From Candidatus Brocadia sp. (GTDB taxonomy: Bacteria; Planctomycetota; Brocadiia; Brocadiales; Brocadiaceae): 32,000 nucleotides of DNA. Shown piece by piece: positions 1 through 23,546 of the stretch (the stretch's first letter is position 1; each line of letters begins with the position of its first letter). The stretch covers positions 420,001 to 452,000 of the forward strand of contig CP091279.1 of the NCBI GenBank assembly GCA_021650915.1. The letters are read 5' to 3'. The position numbers and the translations under genes were made by a program. The notes under the pieces were generated by a model, which saw only the letters and a list, made by a program, of their open reading frames with translations, did not search any database and was not told the origin of the DNA.

Positions 1-7
1 AAAAATA

Positions 8-409
8 ATGAGTATGACTGATCCAATCTCTGATATGTTTACGCGCATGAGAAATGCCTGCGCGATCAAACGAGAGAGCGTAGATATTCCTGTGTCAAAA
101 ATCAAGATGGCAGTTTTAAAGATACTAAGAGAAGAAGGGTTTATAAAGGAATTTAAAGAGATATCCGGCGATAACAACAAAGGTATTATTCGGGTTTATC
201 TCAAATATGGTCCATTAAAACAACCGGTAATCAATAAAATTAACAGGGTTAGTAAGTCAAGCAGGAGAATTTACAGAGGGGCTGATGAGATAACTAAAAT
301 TTTTGGAGGAATTGGTGTTGCAATTTACTCTACTTCAAAAGGTGTTGTAAGTGATAAGGAATGCAGGAGGCTTAAGATCGGTGGTGAACTTATCGGTATT
401 GTTACGTAA
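8..409 (+). CDS. rpsH: 30S ribosomal protein S8
   Basis: 133-aa ORF with typical S8 N-terminus (MTDPISDMFTRMRNA) and C-terminus (GGELIG.V). Sits first in the conserved S8-L6-L18-S5 order. Its ATG overlaps a TAA at 6-8, presumably the stop of an upstream gene. Confidence 0.97.
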   Translation: MSMTDPISDMFTRMRNACAIKRESVDIPVSKIKMAVLKILREEGFIKEFKEISGDNNKGIIRVYLKYGPLKQPVINKINRVSKSSRRIYRGADEITKIFGGIGVAIYSTSKGVVSDKECRRLKIGGELIGIVT

Positions 410-5967: not shown

Positions 5968-5996
5968 CAGGGCGGGTTTTCTCTTAAAATATAAAC

Positions 5997-6857: not shown

Positions 6858-6891
6858 AAATTTGTTAGTTTAACTTGAGAACGGATATACT

Positions 6892-7272: not shown

Positions 7273-7304
7273 ATAAGTTTTAAAAGATTCGCGAAAGGAT
7301 TGAT

Positions 7305-7931
7305 ATGGCAAGATATGTAGGACCACAATGTAGGTTGTGCAGGAGGGAGGGTGAAAAACTATTCCTGAAGGGAATACGATGTGATACGGTGAAATGCGCA
7401 ATTACTAAGAGAAAATACCCTCCTGGTCAATTTACATGGGGAAGAGGAAAATTATCAAAGTATGGCATTCAATTTAGAGAAAAGCAAAAAGTAAAACGGT
7501 ACTACGGAATTTTGGAGAGACAGTTTAAGAATTATTTTAAAAAAGCGGAGCGACAAAAAGGAAATACTGGAGAGAATCTGTTGATGATGTTGGAAAGACG
7601 GTTGGATAATGTTGTGTGCCTTCTCTCTTTTGCCTCTTCAAGAAAGAGTGCAAGACAGTTGGTTCTGCATGGCCATATTACGGTGAATAACAAAAAAGTT
7701 GACATTGCCTCTTATCTTGTGAAAAGTGGTGATATTATAAAACCTAAAGATGATGAGGCAACACAAAATATTGTTAAGGCAAATCTTGAATTAATGAAGG
7801 GACGAAATGTGCCTGCATGGATGCAACTGAGAGTAGATACCCTTGAAGGTCAGGTGATCCAGCTTCCTGCGCGAGAAGATATTTCGGCTCCCGCTCAGGA
7901 ACAGTTAATTGTTGAGCTGTGTTCTAAATAA
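7305..7931 (+). CDS. rpsD: 30S ribosomal protein S4
   Basis: 208-aa ORF starting [22 protein letters not shown], with an S4 RNA-binding domain (LE.RLDNVV......SR..ARQLV.HGHI.VN...V.I.SY). Confidence 0.97.
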
Positions 7932-8076
7932 ATGTATGTTAATTCATTCCGCACCGGGTAGACCTGCAGTTAGTCTAAATAGCTTCGTGGATGTGATCTT
8001 TTACGAAACGTATATACACAGCCAGATAATTTAATTTATTTTCAGATCCCTTATTAACCGAACGAGGGGGAAAAAT

Positions 8077-9093
8077 ATGCGAATCAGGTGGAGAGGTCTT
8101 GAACTTCCTGTCAGAGTTGATGTGGAAAATGAGACTTTAACCGATACCTATGGCAAGTTTATAGCAGCTCCTTTTGAGCGTGGTTTTGGTCATTCTATAG
8201 GCAATAGTTTACGAAGAATATTGCTTTCTTCGTTGGAAGGCAGTGCGGTGGTATCTGTCAGAATTGATGGGATTAGTCATGAATTCACGAGCATTCCTGG
8301 TATTGTGGAAGATGTGACTGATATCATGTTGAATATAAAAAATCTTGTGGTAAAACTGAACGCTGATCAACCGAAAGTAATAAAAATTGAAGCGAAAAAA
8401 AAAGGTGCGGTGACAGCAAAAGACATTGTAACGGATGCAGGGGTAGAAATAATAAACGGTGATTTACATATCGCTACGCTCTCTGAAGACGTGAAATTTA
8501 ACGTAGAAATGGAAGTGAACAAGGGACGCGGGTATGTGACCGCAGAGGAAAACGAACCGGATGAACAGGAGTTTGGGCTTATTGCAGTAGATTCGATTTT
8601 TTCTCCCGTGAGGAATGTCCGCTACTCTATCGAGGAAACACGTGTTGGCAGACGTACAAATTATGACAAACTTATCATGGAGATATGGACAAATCGGGTT
8701 GTTTCCCCTGAAATGGCGCTGGTCGAGGCTGCAAAAATTATGAAAAAGCATTTGAATCCTTTCGTTCAATATTTTGATATTGGGAGAGAGCTGCAACAGG
8801 TGGAAAAAAGAATGGGTATTGAATCCATTCCTGAAATATCTGAAGAAGAGCTTACAAAGAAGATGTGCATACCCATTGCGGAGTTGGATTTATCGGTGAG
8901 GGCCTCCAATTGTCTCGAAATTTCAGGTATTGCAACTGTTGGCGATCTTGTTGCAAAGACGGAGGAGCAGCTTTTAGAAATAAAAAATTTTGGCAAAACC
9001 ACTTTGAGAGAAGTAAAAACAAAGCTGGCTCAGTTGAATTTAACGATTGGAATGCCTGTGGCGATTAAACAAATGGAAAAAGGGAAAGGATAG
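8077..9093 (+). CDS. rpoA: DNA-directed RNA polymerase subunit alpha
   Basis: 338-aa ORF. The N-terminal domain carries G.G.S.GN.LRR.LLSS..G.A and the C-terminal domain carries L.LSVRA.NCL....I..VGDL....E..L..I.NFGK. Confidence 0.97.
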   Translation: MRIRWRGLELPVRVDVENETLTDTYGKFIAAPFERGFGHSIGNSLRRILLSSLEGSAVVSVRIDGISHEFTSIPGIVEDVTDIMLNIKNLVVKLNADQPKVIKIEAKKKGAVTAKDIVTDAGVEIINGDLHIATLSEDVKFNVEMEVNKGRGYVTAEENEPDEQEFGLIAVDSIFSPVRNVRYSIEETRVGRRTNYDKLIMEIWTNRVVSPEMALVEAAKIMKKHLNPFVQYFDIGRELQQVEKRMGIESIPEISEEELTKKMCIPIAELDLSVRASNCLEISGIATVGDLVAKTEEQLLEIKNFGKTTLREVKTKLAQLNLTIGMPVAIKQMEKGKG

Positions 9094-9097
9094 TTCC

Positions 9098-9658
9098 ATG
9101 AGACATAGAATGAGAGGAAGACATTTATCGAGAACTGGTGCACACAGAAAGGCACTAAGACAGAATATAACCAATAGCCTTTTTATGCACGGAAGAATTA
9201 TAACAACTCTTGAAAAGGCAAAAGAAACGCGGTCGTTTGCAGAAAAGGTACTTACCCTTGCAAAAAAAGGATTATCAAAAAAGGATTCTGATAGGCCTAG
9301 TTATGTACATTGCTATCGTCAGGTTTTGGCGAGATTAAGGAATGCTGATGTTACGAGAAAGTTATTTGGCGAAGGGGCCTGGCGTGAATCGGGTGGTATT
9401 GCCCAGCGGTTTGCCAACCGGAACGGTGGCTATACGAGAATTCTGAAGCTGTCGGGAACTCGATTAGGGGTTTTGTCAGGCAGTAGTGTGGGAAAAATAC
9501 CAGTGCTTGAATATAGGATGGAAGGCGCGGACAGAAAGTTACGAATGTTAGGACGGCGACTTAATGATAATGCGTCACGCGTGATCTTTGAGTTGGTTGC
9601 AGGCACCGCGGAAATGCAGTCATCTGATGCCGTGAAGCCAACTGTTACCACAGGTTAG
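9098..9658 (+). CDS. rplQ: 50S ribosomal protein L17 (with an internal insertion near the C-terminus)
   Basis: Start taken at MRHRMRGRHLSRTGAHRKALRQN (ATG 9098), the universal L17 N-terminus. The track start at 9047 overlaps rpoA and adds non-homologous residues. GGYTRILKL and RVIFELV flank about 28 extra residues. Confidence 0.93.
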   Translation: MRHRMRGRHLSRTGAHRKALRQNITNSLFMHGRIITTLEKAKETRSFAEKVLTLAKKGLSKKDSDRPSYVHCYRQVLARLRNADVTRKLFGEGAWRESGGIAQRFANRNGGYTRILKLSGTRLGVLSGSSVGKIPVLEYRMEGADRKLRMLGRRLNDNASRVIFELVAGTAEMQSSDAVKPTVTTG

Positions 9659-9695
9659 GTAAAACGCATTTAAAAATATGGTAGTCGAATGGTTT

Positions 9696-9734
9696 ACCCT
9701 TCTACTATAGGTAGCATAGTAGAAGGGTTTTTTT
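9696..9734 (+). terminator. rho-independent terminator of the ribosomal/alpha operon
   Basis: Perfect 12-bp stem CCCTTCTACTAT (9697-9708) / ATAGTAGAAGGG (9716-9727), a 7-nt loop, then T7 (9728-9734). It lies 38 nt after the rplQ stop. Confidence 0.9.
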
Positions 9735-9739
9735 GTCAC

Positions 9740-10345
9740 ATGGAAGTCATTACCAAGAAACGCTTGATCCTGGCATCAACTTCTCCCCGTAGGATCGCTT
9801 TGCTTAAACTGTTAGGATACCGCTTTGATATTATACCGCATAGCATAGATGAATATATTCCTGACGATGCTACGCCGGAGGAAGTGGTTCTGAATCTTGC
9901 GTTTATGAAGGCACATGATGTTGCCGGAAGAGTCGAGGACGCCATAATTATCGGAGCCGACACCCTCGTATATCATAAAAAGGGTATTATCGGGAAACCA
10001 AAAGACATTCGTGATGCAAAAAAAATCCTTTCCCTGCTGAGTAATTCTGCACACAGTATTTTTACCGGGGTGTGCATTATAGACAAACCTTCGCAAAAGA
10101 AATTGTTGCGGAATGAACGAACACAGATTACAATGAAGCATATTCCTGAAGAAGAACTGGAAGCATATGTTCAGTCTGGCGAACCAATGGATAAGGCGGG
10201 AGCTTATGCTATTCAGGGTGAAGGGGAAAAATTTATTAAACAAATCACTGGTAGCTACTCAAATGCGGTTGGTCTGCCATTGGGGCTTGTTCAGGAAATG
10301 CTCAATAAATTTAACTATCATAATGAAGATGCCGAGAAATTTTAG
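9740..10345 (+). CDS. maf: Maf-like nucleoside triphosphate pyrophosphatase (septum formation inhibitor family)
   Basis: LILAS.SPRR..LL..LG..F.I.....DE, GADT.V, KP and AGAY.IQG motifs. Start moved to ATG 9740 because the track start at 9689 lies inside the terminator hairpin. Confidence 0.9.
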   Translation: MEVITKKRLILASTSPRRIALLKLLGYRFDIIPHSIDEYIPDDATPEEVVLNLAFMKAHDVAGRVEDAIIIGADTLVYHKKGIIGKPKDIRDAKKILSLLSNSAHSIFTGVCIIDKPSQKKLLRNERTQITMKHIPEEELEAYVQSGEPMDKAGAYAIQGEGEKFIKQITGSYSNAVGLPLGLVQEMLNKFNYHNEDAEKF

Positions 10346-10790
10346 TTGGGTAATCGAAGATGAAATAGCTGGTATGGCGAGACCCATATCCTTGGTGTCG
10401 GATCTTGAATTTCTCAAAGACAACGGAATCGAAGCGATTGTATCTTTAACCGAAGTGCCGCTGCCGATAACGTTCATCGAAGAATTTGGCTTCGAGTACA
10501 AACATATTCCTGTTGCTGATCTCACCTCACCAACGCAAAGCCAAATTGATGAGTTTGTGACCTTCGTTAATGATCTGATCTCTTCTAAGAAAAAGACCGT
10601 TGTTCATTGTGATGCCGGGATCGGAAGGACAGGCACAATGTTGGCTTGTTATCTGGTAAGCAAGGGTCATACCGCTCAAAAGGCGATGATCGAAGTGCGC
10701 AAGAGGAGGCCAGGATCTATTGAGACCAGGGAACAGGAATACACGATCGTAAAATACGAAGAGAGGCTTTTAAAAAGACGCAGAGGGTAG
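10323..10790 (+). CDS. dual-specificity / Cys-based protein phosphatase (CX5R)
   Basis: Active-site loop VHCDAGIGRTGT (HCX5R-T). Start taken at MKMPRNFSW (10323, or 10329). The long track extension from 10167 is out of frame with, and buried inside, maf. Overlaps the maf 3' end by about 20 nt. Confidence 0.8.
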   Translation: MKMPRNFSWVIEDEIAGMARPISLVSDLEFLKDNGIEAIVSLTEVPLPITFIEEFGFEYKHIPVADLTSPTQSQIDEFVTFVNDLISSKKKTVVHCDAGIGRTGTMLACYLVSKGHTAQKAMIEVRKRRPGSIETREQEYTIVKYEERLLKRRRG

Positions 10791-10845
10791 CAGCTCCGTT
10801 ATTGCCTGAAAAACATGATGTTTGGTAAAACAATGACCATACCCC

Positions 10846-11679
10846 TTATTCTGTGCAACGCGTCTCTTTTTCCTTGAGATGACACCTTGCTGGATTCCTG
10901 ATGGAGTGCTCATAAGCAACAAGAGCAGCACCAAGGGCTGTCGTGATTTGCGGATCAGGTGGAATAGAGATTCCTGTTTCCAATTCCCGTTCCAGTGCAC
11001 TTTTCAATCCAGTATTGAATGCTGGTCCGCCGTCAAAGAACACTGCCTCTTTTACGCCGATTTTTTTGACCATGGCTCCTACCCGTTTGGCAATCGATTG
11101 ATGAATACCAGCAATAATATCCTCCACCTTTTTTCCTTGGGAAAGGAGTGAAATGACCTCCGACTCGCCAAAAACGGTGCACAAACTATTGATGTGCGGT
11201 ATATTTTCGGCCCGTTCCGACAAGATGCCCAGCTCATCCAGTTCCACTTCAAGGATACGACTCATAACCTCAAGGAATCGTCCTGTCCCGGCGGCGCATT
11301 TGTCGTTCATAGCAAAGTCCGTCATGATACCGCGATCATCGAGGGCAATGACCTTGCAGTCCTGTCCACCAATGTTAATAATAGTTCTTACGTTTGCTTT
11401 ATCGCGCATGAGCCACGTAGCGGCCTTCGCATTTGCCGTAATTTCAGTGATAATTTCGTTGGCTGGCACAATCCTGCGGCCGTAGCCGGTAGCCACGCTG
11501 TATTGGATTTCGTCCTCTCGTAAACCATAATCTTCGACCAATTCTTCAAGCAGGAGTTTAACCGTTCTCTTGCAATTCGTTCCGGTTGAAGATGTCTTTG
11601 ATCCAAGAAAAGTCAGTCCACGCAGGAGCACTACCTTTGTGGTTGTTGAGCCAATGTCTATTCCCGCCACTATTTTCAT
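10846..11679 (-). CDS. BadF/BadG/BcrA/BcrD-type ATPase; 2-hydroxyacyl-CoA dehydratase / benzoyl-CoA reductase-type activase (HgdC-like)
   Basis: N-terminus MKIVAGIDIGSTTTKVVLL (ASKHA phosphate-1). Carries the two cluster-bridging Cys contexts NDKCAAGTGRFLE and LCTVFGESEVISL. Start set at Met36 of the track ORF, because the extension to 11784 reads into intron-derived sequence. Confidence 0.88.
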   Translation of the reverse strand: MKIVAGIDIGSTTTKVVLLRGLTFLGSKTSSTGTNCKRTVKLLLEELVEDYGLREDEIQYSVATGYGRRIVPANEIITEITANAKAATWLMRDKANVRTIINIGGQDCKVIALDDRGIMTDFAMNDKCAAGTGRFLEVMSRILEVELDELGILSERAENIPHINSLCTVFGESEVISLLSQGKKVEDIIAGIHQSIAKRVGAMVKKIGVKEAVFFDGGPAFNTGLKSALERELETGISIPPDPQITTALGAALVAYEHSIRNPARCHLKEKETRCTE

Positions 11680-11729
11680 AGCATATAATAGTACCTGTAA
11701 TAAGCATGCAAGACAAGGTAAAAGTCGTT

Positions 11730-11953
11730 GTGCGAGATAGGCGTGCCTTGAAGTATGGAATACCTGAGTGGTTGAAAATACCATCTCTGCGAGCCTAAGT
11801 CCTCGTAGAGAAGTTTGTACCTATGCGTATACAAAGGAGCAATCCGTGTGCGTAGAAGGATAGCGTATTCCCGTGAGGGGTATGACGGAGTTACGAGGTA
11901 CAGACGACCTTTTGGGGTGCATGAGTATGGCGTATTAGTTCGTGCCGACTGCC
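11730..11953 (+). mobile_element. group II intron 5'-end fragment (first 224 nt, + orientation)
   Basis: Begins GTGCGAGATAGG (GUGYG consensus). Positions 11741-11953 are the reverse complement of 17597-17809, with 8 mismatches in 213 by my manual alignment. That partner segment is the 5' domain-I region of the full-length minus-strand intron. The fragment stops abruptly at ...GACTGCC. Confidence 0.8.
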
Positions 11954-12951
11954 AGCTGGTAGGAAGGAGGCGAATCGCCTCCAACCCCCAATCGTCGCCA
12001 GATACTTTGGACAACGTGACAAAGTATCCTTTTAAACCATACGGCTTTCCCGTAGTTAGCGACCCCATAGTGTTGCTCTGGAGCAGAGAAAAGTAAACTA
12101 TCATGCCTTTGCACGTGCCTTAAGAAATTCTCTTTCAAATGAGAGTAACCCCATCTTAAAGAATCGGTGTACCGGGAAACGTTTGTTGTCAGTTTTCCAT
12201 TTTCTCGAAAACTTGAAACTTCTCAGTCTCATGCGTACCCAGCAGTCTAACGAGCGATATACCGTTTGTACATTGCCCAGCCGAAAATAGTTGACATGTC
12301 CCCTTATGACAGGATTTAATGTATCAATGACGGCTTGCAGGTTGACGCCTTGTGTGCGTTTGGTGATGTCTCTAACGGCGTCCTTGAGTTTGTCCAGGGA
12401 TTTCATGCTTACACCCTTGTCCTTGCCCATGAAATTATATCCGAGAAACCGGAAGCCTCGTTTGAAGTTGGTGAGCCTGGTTTTATCCTCGCTCAGCTTC
12501 ATTTCAAGTTTCCCTTCGATGATTTCTTTGACGTACTGAAGGGCGGCAGGGAGTTCTTCTTTCGTTTTTATCATGACAACGAAGTCATCGGCATAGCGGA
12601 CAAATTTATATCCTGCCTTTTCAAGCTCCTTGTCGATGATGTCACCGATAAGGTTTGCAAGCAAGGGGGATATGACGCCTCCTTGCGGAGTGCCTTGATT
12701 TGTCTCGTGCACGATGCCGTCCTCCATGACCCCTGCCTTGAGCATGTTCTCGATACTGTTCAACACCCATCCGTCAGCGATTTTCTCACGCAAGGAGTTC
12801 ATGATAAGCTTATGAGGTATGGTGTCATAGAACGCCTTTATATCGGCGTCCAAAATGTTCCGATACCCTTGCTGCTTATACTGTTCAATCCGTTTGATAG
12901 CATCATGACAGCATCTGTTTGGACGAAATCCAAAGCTGTTATCCGAGAATT
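11954..12951 (-). mobile_element. group II intron 3' partial copy, tandem unit 1 (998 bp: 147-nt 3' RNA domains plus distal 2/3 of the RT ORF)
   Basis: Near-identical to 15807-16804. Starts AGCTGGTAGGAAGGAGGCGAATCGCCTCC and ends CCGAGAATT. Confidence 0.9.
12101..12951 (-). pseudogene. 5'-truncated group II intron RT/maturase (lacks RT domains 0-2)
   Basis: Reading frame colinear with residues about 106-388 of the 388-aa RT (YADD, X/maturase domain). The track ORF 12101-12853 starts at a Leu-to-Met change. There is no upstream RT N-terminus. Confidence 0.9.
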
Positions 12952-13051
12952 AGTTGGTAGGAAGGAGGCGAATCGCCTCCAACCCCCAATCGTCGCCAGA
13001 TACTTTGGACAACGTGACAAAGTATCCTTTTAACGGATGTTCACCTCAAGG

Positions 13052-13079
13052 CAAAAAACAAAAAGGCTGCGAAAGCCTT
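13052..13079 (-). terminator. hairpin plus U-run just inside the IS-A end, downstream of the transposase stop
   Basis: The minus strand reads AAGGCT-TTCGC-AGCCTT followed by TTTTGTTTTTTG. Confidence 0.55.
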
Positions 13080-13083
13080 AATT

Positions 13084-14738
13084 TTACTGGCTTATTTGTT
13101 GCCTGGTAAGTTTTTTTCTCGTGACTACCCGTAGGTTCCGGCTTGGCAATGCCTCCGGCAGCTTTACCTGCAATGCCTCTAACAATTCACGTGATTGTTG
13201 CCGTGGACGTGGTATCTTCTGGCAATGCGCCTTTTGACCCTTCACCTTCACTTCCACGGAACAAATGGTAGTCAATTGTTTGAGTCCTTCCTCTACCGTC
13301 AGATCAAAACTCTTCCACGCATCACGTAACCTTCGGATTATCAGGTACGCAAGCATTACCACAAACACATGCCCTTTTGTACTCTCTTCTTTCCTCACGT
13401 ATACAGGACGAACCTCAAGATTCACCGTCTTGCACCCCCGAAACACCTTCTCCACCTCTGACAAGTCCTTGTACCGGTCGTGCACCAGATCGGCATCCGC
13501 ATCGCCCTCCTTCAGATCGGTCTTGATTACATAACATCCATCAAGATACGATTCTTCCTTGAATGCTTCTTCATTGTTCTCAATCTTCAGCGCCCCGGCC
13601 TCGTCTTTTATCTGCACCCACCCCTCAAGCTTCAGCTTCCCGAGCTTCTCCTTCGCTGCCCCCAGCGCCTTCAATACCGATGCCTTCGGATGTTCTCTCA
13701 AATAACCATTCCTCTTCTCGACATATCTCTCCATACTCTGTAATTTTGACATGCGAGTCTTCGCCATCTCTTCTGCCCTTATCGGATTGCGTCTCAGAAT
13801 ATACCGAACCCCCTCACTCTTTATCTCGCAGAGCTTTTCTTCAAACAACCCTAACTGCAGAATCCCTTGTTTTATCAACGACTCGATCTGCGGCTTGGTT
13901 ATCGCCGTTATGTAATGAAACCCCTCCGGTAAACATTCGATTTGCATCGTCTTGATCATCCCCCGATCACCTACCATGGTCACCCCGGTGCACCCAAACC
14001 GTTCTGCCGTCTTCTTTACCTGAGACTCAAAGGTCTTTGGGTCCTGAGTATTGCCCCGAAAAACCTCCGTGGACACCGGCTCCCCAAATTCATCACACAG
14101 CATACCAATCACGATCTGCTTCTTCCCCTTCTTGCCGTCACGATTATACCCGTACTCACCAAAACGATTCTGCTCCCCTCCAGATAACTGCTCGTCACGT
14201 CATACAGAAACAGCTTCGGCTTCTTGCCTGCCCGTCTTGCCTCAAACAACGTTCGCTCTATCCTCGCCTGTTGCTCCGATAACCACGATAAATTATCGTA
14301 GAGATCATTCTCGTCGAACCCCCGCTTCATACCCAGCACATCACCCGCTGCATGCACATGCGCCAGCCGCACCGCCGAGAGTCTTGACCCCTGATTTATC
14401 ACCCGCGCCATTACCTGCCACAGCGCCAGTCTCCCTTGAAAATCCTTCCCCAACGCCTCCTCTATCCCTAATTCCTTTGCCACCTGGTACACACTCCAGA
14501 TCGCCCCCACGGACATCCCCTCCTGGAGTTCCACCGATCCTGACAATGCCCCCAATGCAGTGAGATCCTCTTTATGGCTGAGGGCAAGCTTTATCGCTTC
14601 TATCTCCCGCGATGTGCAGTTCGACAGATTTGCAATGGTACGCTTCCTGACCTTTCCGCCTTCCCGATACGATTCCCGCAAAAGAATGGAGCGATAGATT
14701 TTTTTGCCGGATTTTGATTTGTTTTCCACAATATGCAT
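13084..14738 (-). pseudogene. IS1634-family DDE transposase, split by a 1-nt frameshift
   Basis: The N-terminal ORF 14109-14738 ends ...YDVTSSYLEG. The C-terminal ORF 13084-14112 is in another frame. Slipping -1 at the G4 run (14175-14178) restores LEG-EQNRFGEYGYNRDGKKGKKQIVIGMLCDEFGEPV, the family-typical linker. Confidence 0.85.
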
Positions 14739-14955
14739 GTCTACTATAATATACTATATTATTCAACATTTCAAGCACATTATTGAATAATAACAATATA
14801 TTAGTGACTACATAATTGCAGACAAAACCACACTAACTACCAATATATTAAATACTTACGTGGTTTGCTTGGGGTGAACATCCGTTTTAAACCATACAGC
14901 TTTCCCGTAGTTAGCGACCCCATAGTGTTGCTCTGGAGCAGAGAAAAGTAAACTA

Positions 14956-15806
14956 TCATGCCTTCGCACGTGCCTTAAGAAATTCTCTTTCAAATGAGAG
15001 TAACCCCATCTTAAAGAATCGGTGTACCGGGAAACGTTTGTTGTCAGTTTTCCATTTTCTCGAAAACTTGAAACTTCTCAGTCTCATGCGTACCCAGCAG
15101 TCTAACGAGCGATATACCGTTTGTACATTGCCCAGCCGAAAATAGTTGACATGTCCCCTTATGACAGGATTTAATGTATCAATGACGGCTTGCAGATTGA
15201 CGCCTTGTGTGCGTTTGGTGATGTCTCTAACGGCGTCCTTGAGTTTGTCCAGGGATTTCATGCTTACACCCTTGTTCTTGCCCATGAAATTATATCCGAG
15301 AAACCGGAAGCCTCGTTTGAAGTTGGTGAGCCTGGTTTTATCCTCGCTCAGCTTCATTTCAAGTTTCCCTTCGATGATTTCTTTGACGTACTGAAGGGCG
15401 GTAGGGAGTTCTTCTTTTGTTTTAGTCATGACAACGAAGTCATCGGCATAGCGGACAAATTTATATCCTGCCTTTTCAAGCTCCTTGTCGATGATGTCAC
15501 CGATAAGGTTTGCAAGCAAGGGAGATATGACGCCTCCTTGCGGAGTGCCTTGATTTGTCTCGTGCACGATGCCGTTCTCCATGACCCCTGCCTTGAGCAT
15601 GTTCTCGATACTGTTCAACACCCATCCGTCAGCGATTTTCTCACGCAAGGAGTTCATGATAAGCTTATGAGGTATGGTGTCATAGAACGCCTTTATATCG
15701 GCGTCCAAAATGTTCCGATACCCTTGCTGCTTATACTGTTCAATCCGTTTGATAGCATCATGACAGCATCTGTTTGGACGAAATCCAAAGCTGTTATCCG
15801 AGAATT
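14956..15806 (-). pseudogene. 5'-truncated group II intron RT/maturase (second fragment)
   Basis: Same truncation point as 12101-12951. It differs from the other copies by a few scattered substitutions (D/N, I/T, A/T). Confidence 0.9.
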
Positions 15807-17809
15807 AGCTGGTAGGAAGGAGGCGAATCGCCTCCAACCCCCAATCGTCGCCAGATACTTTGGACAACGTGACAAAGTATCCTTTTAAACCATACGGCTT
15901 TCCCGTAGTTAGCGACCCCATAGTGTTGCTCTGGAGCAGAGAAAAGTAAACTATCATGCCTTTGCACGTGCCTTAAGAAATTCTCTTTCAAATGAGAGTA
16001 ACCCCATCTTAAAGAATCGGTGTACCGGGAAACGTTTGTTGTCAGTTTTCCATTTTCTCGAAAACTTGAAACTTCTCAGTCTCATGCGTACCCAGCAGTC
16101 TGACGAGCGATATACCGTTTGTACATTGCCCAGCCGAAAATAGTTGACATGTCCCCTTATGGCAGGATTTAATGTATCAATGACGGCTTGCAGGTTGACG
16201 CCTTGTGTGCGTTTGGTGATGTCTCTGACGGCGTCCTTGAGTTTGTCCAGGGATTTCATGCTTATACCCTTGTTCTTGCCCATGAAATTATATCCGAGAA
16301 ACCGGAAGCCTCGTTTGAAGTTGGTGAGCCTGGTTTTATCCTCGCTCAGCTTCATTTCAAGTTTCCCTTCGATGATTTCTTTGACGTACTGAAGGGCGGC
16401 AGGGAGTTCTTCTTTCGTTTTTATCATGACAACGAAGTCATCGGCATAGCGGACAAATTTATATCCTGCCTTTTCAAGCTCCTTGTCGATGATGTCACCG
16501 ATAAGGTTTGCAAGCAAGGGAGATATGACGCCTCCTTGCGGAGTGCCTTGATTTGTCTCATGCACGATGCCGTCCTCCATGACCCCTGCCTTGAGCATGT
16601 TCTCGATACTGTTCAACACCCATCCGTCAGCAATTTTCTCACGCAAGGAGTTCATGATAAGCTTGTGAGGTATGGTATCATAGAACGCCTTTATATCGGC
16701 GTCCAAAATGTTCCGATACCCTTGCTGCTTATACTGTTCAATCCGTTTGATAGCATCATGACAGCATCTGTTTGGACGAAATCCAAAGCTGTTATCCGAG
16801 AATTCTTTCTCGAATATTGGCTCTATGATTTGTCTGAACGCCTGCTGTACTACCCTGTCCTTGACAATGGGAATGCCAAGAGGTCTCTTGCCATGCCTGC
16901 CTTTGGGAATGTAGACCCTTAAGACGGGCGCAGGGTTGTATATGGCGGTTTTCAGTTCCTTGTGAATAGCTTGTAGATTATTCTCAAGGTCACTTTCAAA
17001 CTGCTTAATACTTACCCTGTCGAGACCAGCCTTGCCTTTATTCTTCTTTACGTGCCCAAAAGCCGCATAAAGGTTTCTCAGACTGAATACCTTGTCTCTT
17101 AAAGAATGATACTTAAGCATCTCCCGATATGTTCCTTTTGATTGATTCCGGATAATAGACTTGTCAATCGTGTTTCCTGAGTCGAGATTCCTCCTGACAG
17201 AGGCAAAACAAGAGAGGCTCTTGCTACTACTTGCCCATGCAAAGAGTCTCTTTTCTCATGGAACGTATTCAATCTACCACGTTTCATCAACTCCACTACG
17301 GTTATGCCCCTTCATTCCTGGTACACACCAGAAACTATTATGAGCACTGCTGACGACTTCAAAGACAGACCTGTGAGAGCCAGTCGTCTGTCACCATCTC
17401 ATACAGCTTGGATTTCGGATTTCCCTTATACCTCGCTGTTAGGGAATTTCTTCCCAAGACGTAAGTCCTCCCCCGGTCATATGAATTACCCCTTTTCCCT
17501 TCGTGATGTATGTTCAAACGCATTATCCAGAGATGTTTTCACCTGGTCTCTTTTGACATCTCCAACAAGGACATTGTCAGTGCTTCACTGAGAAAGGGCA
17601 GTTGGCACGAACTAACACGCCATACTCATACACCCCAAAAGGTCGTCTGTACCTCGTAACTCCGTCATACCCCTCACGGGAATACGCTATCCTTCTACGC
17701 ACACGGATTGCTCCTTTGTATACGCATAGGTACAAACTTCTCTACGAGGATTTAGGCTCGCAGAGGTGATATTTTCAACCACTTAGGTATCCCATACTTC
17801 AAGGCACGC
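15807..17809 (-). mobile_element. group II intron, only copy with complete ORF and domains I-IV (about 2.0 kb)
   Basis: Layout: 147-nt 3' region, ORF 15954-17120, then 689 nt of 5' structured region. In the minus-strand reading, the last nucleotides fold as a GC helix with a bulged A 7 nt from the end (...CCUUCCUACCAGCU). The 5' boundary abuts an IS-A fragment and lacks the GUGYG seen in the 11730 copy. Confidence 0.85.
15954..17120 (-). CDS. group II intron-encoded reverse transcriptase/maturase (388 aa, no endonuclease domain)
   Basis: Motifs NKGKAGLDRVS, RVYIPKGRHGKRPLGIP...DRVVQQA, SFGFRPNR, DADIKAFYDTI, GTPQGGVISPLLANL and YADDFVV, followed by a maturase X-like NP.IRGHVNYF. The ORF ends without HNH/En motifs. 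Confidence 0.95.
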   Translation of the reverse strand: MLKYHSLRDKVFSLRNLYAAFGHVKKNKGKAGLDRVSIKQFESDLENNLQAIHKELKTAIYNPAPVLRVYIPKGRHGKRPLGIPIVKDRVVQQAFRQIIEPIFEKEFSDNSFGFRPNRCCHDAIKRIEQYKQQGYRNILDADIKAFYDTIPHKLIMNSLREKIADGWVLNSIENMLKAGVMEDGIVHETNQGTPQGGVISPLLANLIGDIIDKELEKAGYKFVRYADDFVVMIKTKEELPAALQYVKEIIEGKLEMKLSEDKTRLTNFKRGFRFLGYNFMGKNKGISMKSLDKLKDAVRDITKRTQGVNLQAVIDTLNPAIRGHVNYFRLGNVQTVYRSSDCWVRMRLRSFKFSRKWKTDNKRFPVHRFFKMGLLSFEREFLKARAKA

Positions 17810-18110
17810 GTCTCTCCATATAACTGCTCGTCACATCATACAAAAACAGCTTCGGCTTCTTGCCTGCCCGTCTTGCATCAAACAACGTTCGCTCTATCTT
17901 TGCCTGATGCTCCGATAACCACAATAAATTATCGTAGAGATCATTCTCGTCGAACCCCCGCTTCATACCCAGCACATCACCCGCTGCAGGCACATGCGCC
18001 AGCCTTACCGCCGAGAGTCTTGACCCCTGATTTATCACTCGCGACATTACCTGCCACAGCGCCAGTCTCCCCTGAAAATCCTTCCCCAATGCCTCCTCTA
18101 TCCCTAATTC
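17810..18110 (-). mobile_element. internal fragment of a second IS-A copy (transposase residues about 95-190)
   Basis: Colinear with 14185-14480 of IS-A (ELGIEEALGKDFQGRLALWQVM.RVINQGSRLSAVRLAH...LFLYDVTSSY). It is cut on the left by the intron and on the right by IS-B. Confidence 0.88.
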
Positions 18111-19681
18111 GTGTTTGAACGGAACCCCCCCCCAGAGCCCTGTAAAGTAAGGAGAAGCTGGTGAAAAATGTTCATGAAAGTCATTGAATTTTTTCGGGTA
18201 AAAGGGTAAAATATGGCGAAAATGAAGGGATTCTGGGTATAAAGAGTCCAAATATTCGGTTCATTAACCCACTAGCCAAAGGACATTCGATAGAAGATGA
18301 GAAAGAGATTTGAGCAGCAATTGAAGCTTGGCATCATACCCATTTCAGGGGTAAAACTGCCAATAAAGAGTCGAGATGAGCTACCACCGATACTGAGGGC
18401 GTTGCAACATATCTATGTTACACCGGAGTTGAACGAGGAGGTATTCCGGATATTAGAGGCGAAGGTAACGAAGGGGAAGAAAAAGACGGGAAGATATGGG
18501 ATGGATTTATGGCATATTTTGGTGTTGTCGGTGGTAAGATTAGGGTTAGATGCCGATTATGACAGGTTGGAGGATTTTGCCAACCATCACAAACTTATCA
18601 GGCAGATAATGGGGGTTGAGACGGCATTTGGAGAGGCGAAGGTTTTTTCGATGCAGAGCATCAAGGACAATATAAGATTGTTGGATGAGGAGACCCTCAG
18701 GCAGATAAATGAAGTGGTGATATCATCGGGGCATCAGTTGGTTAAAAAAAAGGACGAAGGACTGTGTATTAAGGTGGATACGTATGTGTTAGAGACGAAT
18801 GTACACTTTCCGACCGATATGAATTTATTGTGGGATGCGGGACGCAAGAGTCTGGACATGATAGAGGATGCAATAGAGGAAGGCATCCTGGCGGGGAAAG
18901 GATGGCGCAAGAGCAAATATTGGAGGAGAGAGTTAAAAAAGCTGATGAGGATAAGCGCAAAGGCGTCAAGCAGCGGGGGGAAAAACAAGGAAGAGCATGT
19001 GAGGAGTTACTTGGAATTATCGAGGGGTTTGAATGAAAAGATAGGAGCGAGTCTGTTAGCCATCTACGAAAAGGTGCTAACGACGAACCAGGTAGACAAG
19101 CATGCAGGGAAAATAGGGACACTGGAGTATTTTCACGGGATGTTGAATAAACAGATAGACCTGGTGGAGAGAAGGGTGATCCGGGATGAGGTAATACCGG
19201 CGGCAGAAAAGGTTCATTCGTTGTTTGAGCCGCATACGGAGTGGCTGTACAAAGGCAAGTCAAACAAAAGGGTAGAGTTGGGACATAATATTCTGGTAGC
19301 AAGCGATCAGTGGGGTTTCATCGTGGACCATGTGGTAGGAGAAAAACAGGCGGATGTATCGTTGGTAATTCCATTGGCAGATAGGTTGTTGAGCCGTTAC
19401 GGAGAAGGCACAATAAAGAGTATAAGTTTTGATAAAGGTTTTTACAAGAAAGAGAATAAAGAGTTGCTGAGTTTGTATATACCAGAGGTAATCCTTCCCA
19501 AGAAGGGCAAGAAGAATAAGGCGGAACAGGAAGAGGAATCGGGTAAGACATTTAAGAAGCTAAGGCACAAGCACTCGGCGGTAGAATCGGATATCAATCG
19601 TTTGGAGCATCACGGCTTGGATAGGTGTCCGGACAAAGGGCTGCATGCCTTTAAAAGATATTGTGCAATGGGCGTGTTAGC
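18111..19681 (+). mobile_element. IS-B copy 1 (3'-truncated by IS-C); DDE element of the IS5/IS1182-like superfamily, exact family uncertain
   Basis: The left end GTGTTTGAACGGAA is shared with copy 2 at 20158. Colinear with copy 2 up to ...GGGCGTGTTAGC. The remaining roughly 325 bp of the element are absent. Confidence 0.85.
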
Positions 19682-19760
19682 CCGACTTTCGCAATTCGCG
19701 CCCGAAAAAGGTTATTTTTGGGCAAGAGTCGCCAGGAAACCCGTGAAATTCAAGGGGTGA
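18297..19760 (+). pseudogene. IS-B transposase with chimeric C-terminus
   Basis: DDE-type contexts DTYVLETNVHFPTD, SFDKGFY and SAVESDINRLEHHGLDRC. The last 26 or so codons (RLSQFAPEKGYFWARVARKPVKFKG) are read from the IS-C terminal repeat. The authentic tail, seen in copy 2, is AANLHKLGNVLQEKARKQCEKLRKAA. Confidence 0.8.
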
Positions 19761-20157
19761 ATTTTCAAAACGGCTTGTAGTGCCGACCTACCCTCTTGAC
19801 GCATGCAGGGGGAAGTGCGAAAATGCTCGCATGCTTCTCCGGGAAAAGACACGAACGAAAGATGGAAAAACCCACCGTTATTGGAGCATGGTAGAGAACC
19901 GCCGGGTCAGCGGAAGAAGGGTGGTGCAACGGCAGGTTCTCTATTTGGGAGAACTCAATGACAATCAACGGGCTGGGTGGATTCGGACGATAGAGGCGGT
20001 GTCGGGTAAAGAACCGAAACCAAGACAACTGGCATTGTTTCCGGATGACCGGGAAGCCATGCCGATACCGGATGGTGAGACAGTTCGGGTGAGGTTGGAC
20101 AAAATAGAGCTGCGCCATCCACGGGAGTGGGGAGCAAGCTGGTTGGGATTGTATGTA

Positions 20158-22006
20158 GTGTTTGAACGGAAACCCCCCAGAGCCCTGTAAAGTAAGGAGA
20201 AGCTGGTGAAAAATGTTCATGAAAGTCATTGAATTTTTTCGGGTAAAAGGGTAAAATATGGCGAAAATGAAGGGATTCTGGGTATAAAGAGTCCAAATAT
20301 TCGGTTCATTAACCCACTAGCCAAAGGACATTCGATAGAAGATGAGAAAGAGATTTGAGCAGCAATTGAAGCTTGGCATCATACCCATTTCAGGGGTAAA
20401 ACTGCCAATAAAGAGTCGAGATGAGCTACCACCGATACTGAGGGCGTTGCAACATATCTATGTTACACCGGAGTTGAACGAGGAGGTATTCCGGATATTA
20501 GAGGCGAAGGTAACGAAGGGGAAGAAAAAGACGGGAAGATATGGGATGGATTTATGGCATATTTTGGTGTTGTCGGTGGTAAGATTAGGGTTAGATGCCG
20601 ATTATGACAGGTTGGAGGATTTTGCCAACCATCACAAACTTATCAGGCAGATAATGGGGGTTGAGACGGCATTTGGAGAGGCGAAGGTTTTTTCGATGCA
20701 GAGCATCAAGGACAATATAAGATTGTTGGATGAGGAGACCCTCAGGCAGATAAATGAAGTGGTGATATCATCGGGGCATCAGTTGGTTAAAAAAAAGGAC
20801 GAAGGACTGTGTATTAAGGTGGATACGTATGTGTTAGAGACGAATGTACACTTTCCGACCGATATGAATTTATTGTGGGATGCGGGACGCAAGAGTCTGG
20901 ACATGATAGAGGATGCAATAGAGGAAGGCATCCTGGCGGGGAAAGGATGGCGCAAGAGCAAATATTGGAGGAGAGAGTTAAAAAAGCTGATGAGGATAAG
21001 CGCAAAGGCGTCAAGCAGCGGGGGGGAAAAACAAGGAAGAGCATGTGAGGAGTTACTTGGAATTATCGAGGGGTTTGAGTGAAAAGATAGGAGCGAGTCT
21101 GTTAGCCATCTACGAAAAGGTGCTAACGACGAACCAGGTAGACAAGCATGCAGGGAAAATAGGGACACTGGAGTATTTTCACGGGATGTTGAATAAACAG
21201 ATAGACCTGGTGGAGAGAAGGGTGATCCGGGATGAGGTAATACCGGCGGCAGAAAAGGTTCATTCGTTGTTTGAGCCGCATACGGAGTGGCTGTACAAAG
21301 GCAAGTCAAACAAAAGGGTAGAGTTGGGACATAATATTCTGGTAGCAAGCGATCAGTGGGGTTTCATCGTGGACCATGTGGTAGGAGAAAAACAGGCGGA
21401 TGTATCGTTGGTAATTCCATTGGCAGATAGGTTGTTGAGCCGTTACGGAGAAGGCACAATAAAGAGTATAAGTTTTGATAAAGGTTTTTACAAGAAAGAG
21501 AATAAAGAGTTGCTGAGTTTGTATATACCAGAGGTAATCCTTCCAAGAAGGGCAAGAAGAATAAGGCGGAACAGGAAGAGGAATCGGGTAAGACATTTAA
21601 GAAGCTAAGGCACAAGCACTCGGCGGTAGAATCGGATATCAATCGTTTGGAGCATCACGGCTTGGATAGGTGTCCGGACAAAGGGCTGCATGCCTTTAAA
21701 AGATATTGTGCAATGGGCGTGTTAGCTGCGAATTTGCACAAGCTGGGAAACGTGCTGCAGGAGAAGGCACGGAAGCAGTGCGAAAAGTTGCGAAAAGCCG
21801 CCTAAGCAAGCAAAAAACACGAAGAAAAACAGTCTGCCGGGAGGCAGGTACGCCCAGACAAGGCTAAAATAAAGGGGAAAACAAGGGAAATATGTAAAAG
21901 AACAGTATTTTTGCCAAAAACCCTAATCTCAAATCTTAAAATTATCTATTGGTAAATAGAAAATCGACCTCGCACTTTTACAAAAAGTGCGTTTTCGTTC
22001 AGACAC
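20158..22006 (+). mobile_element. IS-B copy 2, full length (1849 bp)
   Basis: IRs are GTGTTTGAACGGAAAC and, as reverse complement of the right end, GTGTCTGAACGAAAAC. The 6-bp TSD TATGTA lies at 20152-20157 and 22007-22012. A 9-bp-stem hairpin plus T-run sits just inside the right end (about 21970-21995). Confidence 0.92.
20342..21805 (+). pseudogene. IS-B transposase with two homopolymer frameshifts
   Basis: Relative to copy 1 there is G7 instead of G6 at about 21019-21025, and CC instead of CCC at about 21545. This splits the gene into track ORFs 20342-21082 and 21045-21608 plus a tail that ends at TAA 21803-21805. Confidence 0.88.
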
Positions 22007-23546
22007 TATGTATGGAATATGCTGGAACTGGACACATTCTGGAGGATGCGTCTGCCGTCAAGCCGGAAGGGGACAAGCTGGTTGAATATACTGAAGGCGC
22101 TTGTCTGTTACCGGTTGATCGATCCGGGAAGCGAATTTCGTTTTCACCGTGAGTGGTACGTGCGGAGCGCAACAGGCGATCTGCTGGGAGAGGATTATTC
22201 CCTGGCGCAGAAGGACAAGGCGTATCGTTGTTTGGATTTGTTGCTTGAGCATCGGGACGAGCTGTTTGCCTATTTAAAGGAGAAGTGGGGCAAGCTCTTT
22301 GGGGCGAAGTACGATGTGCTGCTGTATGATTTGACGAGTACGTATTTTGAAAGTGACCCACCTCCGACTGGATCGGGGAGTAAGAAGCGGTTTGGATATA
22401 GCCGGGACAAACGTTCGGATTGCGTGCAGGTGGTAGTGGCATTGGTGTTAACGCCGGAAGGATTTCCCGTTGCCTACGAAGTGTATCCGGGCAATACCAG
22501 AGACACCGCAACGCTGGAGGAATTTCTGGATCGGATTGAAAAGCAGTATGGGAAATTCCGGCGCACCTGGCTTATGGATCGCGGTATTCCAACGGAGGAG
22601 ATGTTGGAAAAGATGCGTGAGCGCGGGATTGATTATTTGGTTGGGACTCCGAAGGGGCATTTGACGAGAGTAGAAAAACCGCTACTCGAACAAACCTGGA
22701 TGCGGGCGAGGGAGAGCGTCCGCGTGAAAGTTCTTCGGCAGGAATCGGAGTTTTACGTTTACGTGGAAAGCCATGACCGGGTGTCTAAGGAGCGTGCCAT
22801 GCGTAGGCGCAGACTCAGACGTTTGTGGATGGGCCTGCGCGAACTTCGCAATCGAAAAGCCCTCACGCGCGATGACCTGCTCATGCATATTGGCGCGTTA
22901 AAGAAAGAAGCCGGACGAGACTACAGACTGGTCACGATCTCCATTCCCAAACCGCAGGAACCGGTCAATGAGAATACGTTCCGGTTCAGTTTGGATCGGG
23001 AACGCCTGAGGCAGGCGTATCGGCGCGAGGGGCGTTATTTGCTTCGTTCCAACATGCAGGCCGCCGCGCCAGAAACCGTCTGGGAAAATTATTTGCTGTT
23101 GACGCGGATAGAACAGGCATTTAAGGACTTGAAGGGGTCTCTTTCCGTCCGCCCCTATGGCATCAATTGGAACGGAGAATTGAAGCCCATATCTTTGTTT
23201 CCTTTTTGGCTTTTTGTCTCCACACGACACTGCGCAATCTTGCGCGGGGGAGGGCCGGAGGGCTGACGTCTGAAGCGATTTTGGAAAAACTGTCGGGCAT
23301 TCAAATGATAGACGTTCATTTACCGACCACGGATGGCCGTCATATTGTCATGAGTCGTTATACCCAGCCGGAGAAGGACGTTTTACTCCTTTTGGCACAA
23401 TTGGGATTAACGCTTCCTGAACAACCGCCGCCCAAGGTTTACGCATCCGGACAGGTCGGCCTGTAGTGCCGACCTTTTTACATGACCCCTTGATTTTACT
23501 GGCTTAGCGGGTTGTATACCCCTCGAATTGCGAAAGTCGGGCTAAC

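Follow-up and report, generated by a model that had tools for sequence, protein, structure and literature searches.

The window, the whole stretch of DNA analysed here, comprises 32,000 nt of the anammox bacterium Candidatus Brocadia sp. (GCA_021650915.1, CP091279.1 positions 420,001-452,000, forward strand) and contains a group II intron whose 3' part is present three times in a row (Table 1). The array consists of three 998-bp units, the second of which carries an IS1634-family insertion. Since unit 3 is contiguous with the intron 5' part, it completes one intact intron copy. The truncated RT of unit 1 is annotated as UJS22445.1 (L3J18_02035), and that of unit 2 is identical to UJS22446.1 (L3J18_02050).

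Table 1. Features of the intron array and its surroundings (window coordinates; a slash marks a joint or an intron-exon boundary)
Feature	Position	Strand	Description
Second intron copy (H), inverted 5' fragment	11741-11953	+	element 1-213, 213 nt, cut exactly before its own EBS1
Unit 1	11954-12951	-	element 1006-2003: RT codons ~106-388 and 147-nt 3' domain
3' domain of unit 1	11954-12064	-	repeated at 15807-15917; broken in unit 2
Unit 2	12952-15806	-	element 1006-2003, broken by the insertion sequence; 3' joint variant CCAACU/AAUUC
IS1634-family insertion sequence	13034-14884	-	1851 bp, terminal inverted repeats CGGATGTTCACC..., 6-bp target duplication
Unit 3	15807-16804	-	element 1006-2003, contiguous with the 5' part
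Intact RT/maturase ORF	15954-17120	-	388 aa, endonuclease domain absent; identical to UJS21124.1
Self-target site P, GAGAAAG/A	16805-16811	-	in the FEKEF codons of the RT ORF
Intron 5' part	16805-17809	-	element 1-1005: 689-nt ribozyme 5' region from GCGUGCC and RT codons 1-105
EBS1 CUUUCUC	17596-17590	-	element 214-220; pairs with the last 7 nt of 5' exons
Array 5' exon	17810-18110	-	IS1634-family transposase gene fragment, ending GGAGAGAC/

A preliminary description had read the locus as an exact head-to-tail triplication of 998 bp, and self-BLAST together with a repeat finder reproduced all three units. The stretch 15807-16804 repeats 11954-12951 over 998 bp with 99.0% identity; further repeat pairs are 14880-15888 with 12026-13033 and 12952-13033 with 11954-12035. 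Unit 2 amounts to 998 bp after subtraction of the insertion and of one copy of its target duplication (TTTTAA on the plus strand, at 13028-13033 and 14885-14890). The insertion sequence has terminal inverted repeats of 17-19 nt (13034-13050 and 14868-14884) and a split transposase, the two ORF halves of which match NF033559 with 194 and 63 bits. It is situated in the UUUAAAAGG linker within the domain V-like region of unit 2.

The element is a mobile group II intron that is present in many copies in this Candidatus Brocadia genome; the annotation of one genome contains at least seven full-length RT genes together with numerous fragments. In profile searches the RT ORF contains RVT_1 (2e-40) and GIIM (6e-15), and it scores 397.9 bits against TIGR04416 group_II_RT_mat (cutoff 300). 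Members of the lineage, whose RT identities reach down to about 44-53%, were found in Brocadia, Kuenenia, one Chlamydiae MAG and several metagenome contigs. Group II introns typically begin with GUGYG and end with AY, and their EBS1, a part of domain I, base-pairs with IBS1, the final stretch of the 5' exon. More than 12 independent copies from Brocadia, Kuenenia and metagenome contigs define an element of 2003 nt with constant ends (GCGUGCC... and ...CUACCAGCU), which is found at many different sites with unrelated flanks and no target duplication. On the 3' side the similarity between these copies ends exactly at ...CCAGCU/; the 5' boundary was set by eight copies, again with unrelated flanks upstream. 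The 5' terminal pentamer reads GCGUG in the window and in most copies, GUGUG in three (L001, L087, L173) and GAGUG in one (L083), which corresponds to GUGYG if the second position is allowed to vary. At its 3' end the element has ...GCU, as against the usual AY.

In group II introns, domain VI typically forms a helix whose bulged branch-point A lies 7-8 nt before the 3' end, and domain V a 34-nt hairpin with an AGC or CGC triad and a 2-nt bulge. The domain VI geometry proposed earlier for the terminal 40 nt was borne out: they form a helix in which a single A, the seventh nucleotide from the end, is bulged (-21.3 kcal/mol, z = -3.8), and this helix co-varies across the copies, with double changes in four of its 14 pairs and an agreeing consensus fold. 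From 5' to 3' the 3' domain comprises a stem of GUCGCU paired with GGCGAC and containing CGC (12061-12059), a hairpin a with a GAAA loop and a 2-nt bulge, a hairpin b and the domain VI-like helix. Over the whole 3' domain 11 pairs show double changes (alignment A4; 0/500 shuffles).

It had been proposed to confirm the 3' end with the Rfam models of domains V and VI. This failed: Rfam Intron_gpII gave no match to the 3' end even when 191 nt were searched with E values up to 10, RF00029 matched none of the copies of the lineage, and a descriptor scan for a domain V-shaped hairpin found none. The end therefore rests on the comparison of the copies and on a custom covariance model (R1). This model aligns the canonical domain V of relatives onto the GUCGCU stem and hairpin a, with CGC at the triad position, and treats hairpin b as an insertion of 34 positions; its match to unit 2 is split by the insertion sequence. 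Judged from this alignment, domain V of the lineage appears to contain an inserted hairpin that splits it. It is invisible to Rfam, and a domain V interrupted in this way would be missed by standard covariance models. As Rfam detects no canonical domain V, the ribozyme activity of the intron is putative.

At each joint of the array the true intron 3' end is fused to one and the same nucleotide within the RT ORF. This had been claimed before, and the terminus is now fixed by the independent copies. On the minus strand the joint between units 3 and 2 reads ...CCUACCAGCU/AAUUCUCGG and that between units 2 and 1 ...CCUACCAACU/AAUUCUCGG. The two sides of the joint have zero nucleotides in common, so its position is exact. 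The window holds only such 3' joints (end/P+1) and no twintron with both junctions; the duplicated 5' part is consequently gone.

Why the joints lie at this nucleotide can be seen from the target recognition of the intron. Copies with the EBS1 CUUUCUC have the 5' exons GAGGAGG/, GAGAAAAG/, GGGGUGG/, GAGAUAG/ and GAGAGAC/, the last being that of the array itself, which ends in a C.C mismatch against EBS1. In the three copies with AUUUCUC the exons end in U (GAGGGAU/ and GAGCGGAU/ in L082 and L087; L083 is known only as AU/). L060 combines the EBS1 CACUCCU with the exon GGGAAUG/, and the Chlamydiae copy (72% identical) CUGACCC with GGGCCAG/. Positions 214-220 co-vary with the 5' exon across L082, L083, L087, L060 and L173. 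Each strand of the 2003-nt element contains the sequence GAGAAAG a single time. On the sense strand it ends at position 1005; this is site P, which complements all seven nucleotides of EBS1, is the sole perfect sense-strand complement in the element and sits in the loop closed by a stable stem of 10 bp. On the antisense strand it lies at junction 213, opposite EBS1, where the presence of EBS1 necessarily provides a perfect complement. These two sites are exactly the two anomalous joints of the locus, and both are occupied. GAGAAAG is also found on the plus strand of the window at 3884, 5573, 9361, 18305 and 20350. All five are unoccupied, so EBS1 pairing alone is insufficient and targeting would have further determinants, with EBS2/EBS3, RT contacts and strand or replication context as candidates.

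We considered two of the possible origins of the joints together, reverse splicing into the intron's own ORF followed by recombinational loss of the 5' part, and repeated switching of the RT during cDNA synthesis from P+1 onto the 3' terminus of a different intron RNA without insertion at P. Both had been put forward in the preliminary description. The first agrees with P being a unique, full-length EBS1 complement: the outer intron at site P matches the intron's own target specificity, as expected of a twintron. It is further backed by reciprocal joints in B. pituitae and in the genome of the window. In the complete genome of B. pituitae (L006) the stretch 2306-3311 corresponds to positions 1-1005 and is directly followed by a full copy, i.e. 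the complementary product [1..P][1..end], with the 5' joint GAGAAAG/GCGUGCC (TTCGAGAAAG/GCGTGCCTTG). In the genome of the window, UJS22295.1 (L3J18_08270) comprises RT residues 1-105 and then GVP-stop, which is what GAGAAAG/GCGTGCCTTGA encodes; the protein reads through the 5' joint. After it come a full RT (UJS22296.1) and a truncated RT of 262 aa (L3J18_08280), the latter not identical to the C-terminal part of the former. With gene order and strand taken from the locus tags and the proteins, L3J18_08270-08280 is apparently an intact, uncollapsed host-guest-host nested copy. End-to-end template switching by group II RTs is established (PMC3683930), and the hairpin around P could stall synthesis. 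Switching nevertheless predicts only end/P+1 joints and cannot yield the P/5'-end joints of L006 and UJS22295.1, and it explains neither the choice of the unique EBS1 complement nor the antisense joint. We regard it as very improbable.

Both the array and the inverted fragment were probably built by self-retrohoming into the two EBS1 complements and subsequent collapse by homologous recombination. Intron RNPs would reverse-splice into both GAGAAAG sites, P on the sense strand and the site opposite EBS1 on the antisense strand. Insertion at P would yield a nested copy composed of host 1..P, guest 1..end and host P+1..end (A-AB-B). Recombination between its direct repeats would then delete the sequence between the A copies to give ABB, or between the B copies to give AAB. 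Collapse might follow complete insertion or occur in one step, with the cDNA being resolved by its homology with the host copy. As such an array would retain one intact P at its A/B border, a second round there and a second collapse would lead to ABBB, with the distal unit 1 being the oldest and unit 3, beside the 5' part, the newest.

The third unit could also have arisen differently, one self-insertion giving ABB and unequal crossing-over or replication slippage between the 998-bp repeats adding the last unit. Direct repeats of this length are good substrates for RecA-dependent unequal exchange, and the resulting ABBB with identical joints would have the same architecture. Units amplified in this way should initially be identical, but units 3 and 2 differ at 17 sites and unit 1 is unlike both. 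Many of the variants are moreover common to L080, L081 or outgroups and are not private mutations, although gene conversion with dispersed copies could have blurred such differences. We consider this route unlikely for the third unit. Plain tandem amplification as the origin of the whole array was rejected, given that the unit boundary coincides with the element 3' terminus and the unique EBS1 complement and that the variants are common to other copies. From the few substitutions between the units it had been concluded that the events are recent. The units differ by 1.0-1.8%; the inference of age is weak, since the differences lie mainly at sites polymorphic among other genomic copies (L080, L081, outgroups) and so point to different donor copies or gene conversion and not to in-situ age. 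They fit the separate donors that repeated self-retrohoming would bring in.

The second anomalous joint is found at the other end of the array, where the 3' end of unit 1 adjoins the antisense strand of copy H at GAGAAAG/GGCAG. Copy H, with the 5' exon GAGATAG (11734-11740), is resident upstream of a CoA-activase gene, and in related strains it runs uninterrupted through EBS1 (positions 213/214; L160 19402-20597, L164). Here the intron 3' end would have been joined to the reverse complement of positions 213..1 of the resident copy, generating a 213-nt inverted repeat. An inverted repeat of 220 nt (11734-11953 and 17597-17816, 95%) adjoins both array ends, and the array 5' flank is an IS1634-family fragment, of which 17814-18110 is 95% identical to 14178-14474; neither had been noted before. 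This 5' flank and the 3' flank do not together make up a single target site. One side of the array must therefore have been exchanged by a further recombination between intron copies, which implies one or more unobserved rearrangements.

A single 4.05-Mb contig from one assembly is the basis for the number of units and for the long-range context, and mis-joining of near-identical dispersed intron copies could in principle have mimicked both the array and the inverted fragment. Repeats are piled up in the region (the intron, two IS1634-family elements and two ISNCY copies), a related scaffold places the two sides of the window ~420 kb from each other and in inverted orientation, and short-read assemblies of related strains break at the intron (L163-L165, L172). 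The related scaffold has N gaps inside the intron and is thus unreliable as a reference. Mis-joins between repeats fall inside shared sequence, whereas the end/P+1 and end/rc213 joints share none and fall at EBS1 complements. The units also bear distinct variants, one of them has an insertion sequence with its own target duplication, and site P was used in the independent complete genome L006 as well. An artefact is accordingly hardly credible.

Off-target 'self-homing' is recorded with unusual clarity at this natural locus: both anomalous joints coincide with the element's only two perfect EBS1 complements, and related genomes contain the two halves expected of the nested intermediate (ABB... 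and AAB). Self-invasion and recombination would thereby create partial tandem arrays and inverted repeats, structures that make a bacterial chromosome unstable and cause assemblies to break. Every group II intron unavoidably offers itself a target on the antisense strand opposite EBS1. For annotation the lineage is a warning, being invisible to Rfam's group II model, and a split domain V, if real and active, would be of interest for ribozyme structure. It is possible, and we suggest this only tentatively, that these introns form a broad, apparently undescribed group II lineage in which a CGC-triad domain V is split by a co-varying hairpin of 35-45 nt in the 3' strand of the lower helix. Such introns would still be highly mobile, and their self-targeting would include antisense insertion opposite EBS1, leading to inverted repeats able to seed chromosomal inversions.

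The preliminary description had called the architecture undescribed, which was overstated: intron-into-intron homing with recombinational deletion is known from Methanosarcina acetivorans (PMC4424553) and self-invasion from plant mitochondria (PMC7049729). The Brocadia array is an example of known intron behaviour and not a new kind of element. Group II introns of M. acetivorans repeatedly home into intron copies, with up to five introns nested (Dai & Zimmerly 2003, in PMC4424553). Their insertions are offset by homologous-recombination deletion and their exons lack a host gene, as in Brocadia. Unlike these nests, the Brocadia array is what collapse has left of self-invasion within the RT ORF, with the 5' part kept once and the 3' part three times, and it is accompanied by antisense insertion opposite EBS1. 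The twintrons of Thermosynechococcus elongatus (Mohr et al. 2010, PMC2882425) share recognition of the En-minus type, mostly by base pairing. Their inner introns belong to a different, ORF-less family, lie between two start codons and retain both junctions, and partial tandem arrays as in Brocadia are not reported in the passages considered. The intron cox1i1149g2 of Lycopodiaceae mitochondria is likewise inserted into its own copy (Zumkeller et al. 2020, PMC7049729). It differs in being organellar and located in domain IV, and in representing an old, degenerating event with the complete twintron retained. Head-to-tail copies formed by retrohoming, the first insertion recreating an acceptable target, were described in 2025 (PMC12584367); in that case the natural site holds two full-length copies placed end to end, whereas the Brocadia joints connect the 3' end to an internal ORF position. 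Clostridium tetani C.te.I1, with four domain V/VI repeats (McNeil et al. 2014, via PMC4424553), resembles the array in having one 5' ribozyme part followed by repeated 3' catalytic segments, each of which is a potential 3' splice site in both systems. As summarised in that source, each C.te.I1 repeat precedes a different exon ORF and serves alternative splicing, whereas the Brocadia repeats comprise intron sequence only and one of them is broken by an insertion sequence.

The three head-to-tail segments of 998 bp that had been claimed in the preliminary description were reproduced by a repeat finder and by self-BLAST of the window. Read on the minus strand, each unit opens with AAUUCUCGG and closes with ...CCUACCAGCU (CCAACU in unit 2), and the rest of the group II intron (16805-17809) precedes unit 3 only. 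Confirmation of the 3' end by the Rfam model Intron_gpII (domains V and VI, DV-DVI), as the preliminary description had proposed, was not obtained: the model had no matches in the window, neither at the gathering threshold nor when 8 kb and the 191 nt at this end were scanned at E <= 10, and in a scan of 28 related loci it had none within the lineage, the sole Rfam signal being a weak match to D1D4-1 (E = 3.4). The termini were therefore defined by copy comparison. As reference, one copy of the element (window 17809-15807, 2003 nt, positions 1-2003) was aligned to relatives that a protein-guided search of species genomes and of metagenomes had gathered. The close ones (80-99% amino acid identity) come from Candidatus Brocadia pituitae (complete genome, four loci), other Brocadia/Brocadiaceae MAGs, Kuenenia hertensis and anammox metagenomes; such loci are denoted by L-numbers. 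Across the aligned copies the similarity starts constantly at GCGTGCCTTGAAGTATGG and ends constantly at ...CTACCAGCT, and the same 3' ending was found in more distant members (72% and 69% RT identity). As the copies share both end points and their upstream and downstream sequences are unrelated, the element truly terminates at the 3' end named in the preliminary description, and its 5' end lies at window position 17809.

Features of the array, its surroundings and the 3' domain (window coordinates unless a locus is named)
Feature	Coordinates	Strand	Remarks
Unit 1	11954-12951	minus	units 98-99% identical (repeat finder, self-BLAST)
Unit 2	12952-15806	minus	as unit 1
Unit 3	15807-16804	minus	as unit 1
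IS1634-family insertion in unit 2	13034-14884		1851 bp; 6-bp duplication TTTTAA (plus strand); terminal inverted repeats; split transposase
Group II intron RT/maturase ORF	15954-17120	minus	388 aa; RVT_1 and GIIM; TIGR04416 398 bits (cutoff 300)
Window RT proteins			main RT UJS21124.1; truncated: unit 1 UJS22445.1 (L3J18_02035), unit 2 UJS22446.1 (L3J18_02050)
Nested insertion sequences block	18111-23546		
Intact ISNCY copy	18111 to ~19675		487-aa transposase; adjoins second IS1634-family element
Second IS1634-family element	19676-19698 and 23524-23546 (inverted repeats)		perfect 23-nt inverted repeats; interrupted by second ISNCY copy
Second ISNCY copy	20158 to ~21800		frameshifted; 99.6% identical to first
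3' domain, window	11954-12064; 15807-15917	minus	
3' domain, related loci	L173 3706-3812; L174 1217-1322; L175 2107-2207; L092 2009-2105		
3' domain (147 nt past stop codon), part 1			invariant stem GUCGCU with GGCGAC around two hairpins (predicted fold)
3' domain part 2, hairpin a			AAC-UACG(G)-GAAA-loop-CGUA-UG-GUU; invariant, 2-nt 3' bulge (predicted fold)
3' domain part 3, hairpin b			8-11 bp, loop ...GUUGUC (predicted fold)
3' domain part 4			helix, bulged A 7th from end (predicted fold)

Both ends of the array are adjoined by the arms of a 220-nt inverted repeat (11734-11953 and 17597-17816, 95% identity), which the preliminary description had overlooked. We had initially read this repeat as exon plus about 106 nt of an intron starting at an internal GUGCG, a reading abandoned because independent copies put the 5' end at 17809. 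With the 5' end fixed, the right arm consists of positions 1-213 of the array's own intron and 7 nt of exon, and consequently the left arm represents positions 1-213, in plus orientation, of a second intron copy, termed H. This copy is located upstream of a CoA-enzyme-activase gene. In related strains (L160, L164) H lies at the same place and is unbroken through positions 213/214; in the window it breaks off after position 213, where the 3' end of the array, which is minus-oriented, is fused to it. As the source of this antisense joint, exchange between inverted intron copies by homologous recombination was discarded, since such exchange makes no new junction. The 312-aa "CoA enzyme activase" ORF (10846-11784, minus) begins within the antisense strand of H, and 276-277 aa are annotated in other strains; the long start probably reflects misannotation caused by the intron insertion.

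Target recognition of group II introns is defined by the pairing of EBS1 with IBS1 at the end of the 5' exon, here its last seven nucleotides. The first seven nucleotides past the cut in H are CUUUCUC (array's copy: window 17596-17590), and the 5' exons of independent copies are purine-rich and complementary to this heptamer (GAGGAGG/, GAGAAAAG/, GGGGUGG/, GAGAUAG/, GAGAGAC/; here and below a slash marks the insertion point or joint). Where the heptamer is AUUUCUC, the exon ends in U, as it does in three copies, L082 (GAGGGAU/), L087 (GAGCGGAU/) and L083 (AU/, only the last two nucleotides known); the Kuenenia copy combines CACUCCU with GGGAAUG/ and a Chlamydiae copy CUGACCC with GGGCCAG/. The pairing thus co-varies, and it is the EBS1-IBS1 interaction. 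The site within the ORF, P, which ends at position 1005, reads TTCGAGAAAG/AATTC and matches EBS1 by Watson-Crick pairing at 7/7 nucleotides. At the cut in H the antisense strand reads CACTGAGAAAG/GGCAG, by construction the complement of EBS1. GAGAAAG occurs exactly once per strand in the 2003-nt element, both times at the anomalous joints; the chance of two arbitrary breakpoints falling on both sites is about (1/2003)^2. The codons for IFEKEFSD form a perfect 10-bp hairpin, UAUUCGAGAA paired with UUCUCGGAUA (window 16790-16817, minus; z = -5.6), whose AGAA loop contains P. Locus L004, considered as a further P-site joint, starts 23 nt upstream of P and is an ordinary 5'-truncated fragment.

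Insertion of the intron at P would produce host 1..P, guest 1..end and host P+1..end, that is A-AB-B, with A denoting positions 1-1005 and B positions 1006-2003. Recombination between the A copies would reduce this to ABB, the type seen in the window, and recombination between the B copies to AAB. The B. pituitae locus L006 has the AAB arrangement: a full copy comes immediately after positions 1-1005, and the joint reads TTCGAGAAAG/GCGTGCCTTG. Elsewhere in the window's genome, the product of L3J18_08270 consists of RT residues 1-105 and then GVP-stop, exactly as translated from GAGAAAG/GCGTGCCTTGA; a full RT has the next protein accession, and L3J18_08280 is a truncated RT of 262 aa that differs from the C-terminus of this full RT. 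At the level of protein sequence, L3J18_08270 to 08280 thus bear the signature of a putative uncollapsed host-guest-host copy, for which we infer strand and order. In ABB the sole intact P would be found at the border of A and B, as the remaining joints would have the intron 3' end in place of IBS1. A second insertion at this border followed by collapse would yield ABBB with the newest unit beside the 5' part. The collapse could take place after complete insertion, or homology of the nascent cDNA with the host copy could resolve the 5' side directly.

The perfect EBS1 complement at P, the only one on the sense strand, together with the joint in L006 and the read-through protein of L3J18_08270, supports reverse splicing into the intron's own ORF with recombinational loss of the 5' duplicate, the first mechanism of the preliminary description. 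Its alternative, template switching by the RT, is not supported, as it yields no 5' joints and leaves the antisense joint unexplained. By architecture, unequal crossing-over would account equally well for the third unit. Each unit, however, has 2-9 private-looking sites, most states of which recur in L080 and L081 (98-99%) or in outgroups; these recurrent variants fit different donor copies, which counts against unequal crossing-over, and gene conversion is a possible source of them. That the joints are an assembly artefact is unlikely, because no sequence is shared across the junctions and they are placed at the two EBS1 complements; the unit number is given as assembled.

The array has as its 5' exon a fragment of 297 bp from an IS1634-family transposase gene, with GGAGAGAC/ at its end, and as its 3' exon antisense H. 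As the exons are not halves of one site, a later exchange between intron copies would have replaced one side. The 11.6 kb from the activase gene to 23546 are wholly nested mobile DNA, comprising the intron array, two IS1634-family elements and two ISNCY copies. Both IS families were also found inside intron copies of Kuenenia hertensis and of a metagenome contig (L060 1906-3760; L084 584-2617); anammox introns and insertion sequences repeatedly insert into one another. In a related scaffold (GCA_021463075.1) the flanks 1-11953 and 23539-32000 lie about 420 kb apart and inverted, suggesting a large inversion that has one end in the block of mobile elements. Little weight is given to this separation, however, since the scaffold has N gaps inside the intron. 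An intron derivative that lacks the ORF and is internally deleted lies upstream of the S10 ribosomal protein operon in the same assembly (L160 544-832); its positions 1-62 are fused to 392-628, and it has its own purine-rich 5' exon, GGAGGAUG/.

Distant RT relatives (40-48% amino acid identity) possess a textbook DV/DVI right after the ORF (52-58 bits on RF00029), which this model did not detect in any Brocadia-lineage member scanned. An nhmmer search with the 5' and 3' untranslated parts against the distant relatives found nothing, and a descriptor scan of the whole element for a DV-shaped hairpin found nothing convincing; the best similarity to the DV consensus lies at the P site and was judged a coincidence. 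In ten sequences with RT identities down to 69%, 95% of the cells in the predicted fold of the 3' domain are paired, versus about 40% in slid controls. Double changes occur at eleven pairs (six belong to hairpin b, four to the terminal helix), a number matched by 0/500 shuffles. A pairing of CGUUG with CGACG, proposed by RNAalifold from a first alignment, was rejected, as it is broken by L086, L173 and L174, which favour hairpin b. A covariance model of the 3' domain recovered the same architecture in L175 (53% RT identity, 505-aa RT) and L092 (44%), and it places the canonical DV-DVI of the relatives onto the stem, hairpin a and the terminal helix, hairpin b being absent and the canonical AGC aligned to CGC (window 12061-12059). 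The hairpin interrupting the stem and GAAA hairpin has 35-45 nt and co-varies. From this one model and the alignment geometry, our reading is that domain V may be present, split by a hairpin inserted in its 3' strand. Unit 2, in which the insertion sequence interrupts this domain, is predicted to be inactive. No description of a split domain V, and nothing specific on anammox group II introns or domain V insertions, was found in the non-subscription literature searched. The sequence UAUGG-GAUA-CCUAAG (window 17782-17796, minus; element positions 14-28) matches the classical 11-nt receptor motif for GAAA tetraloops, and the GAAA loop of hairpin a may dock there.

Regarding known systems, Thermosynechococcus has twintrons at conserved sites in introns or ISs (PMC2882425), an intron that inserted into itself is known from lycophyte mitochondria (PMC7049729), and full-length tandem integration from a groEL intron (PMC12584367). 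The preliminary description overstated the novelty of the architecture, and what is seen here is a variant of behaviour already known rather than an element of a new kind. The clean mechanistic evidence adds somewhat to its value, as does the lineage's split domain V, which may be undescribed. New with respect to these systems are the collapsed 3'-partial array, the demonstration that the element has no EBS1 complements other than its two self-targets, and the antisense insertion opposite EBS1.
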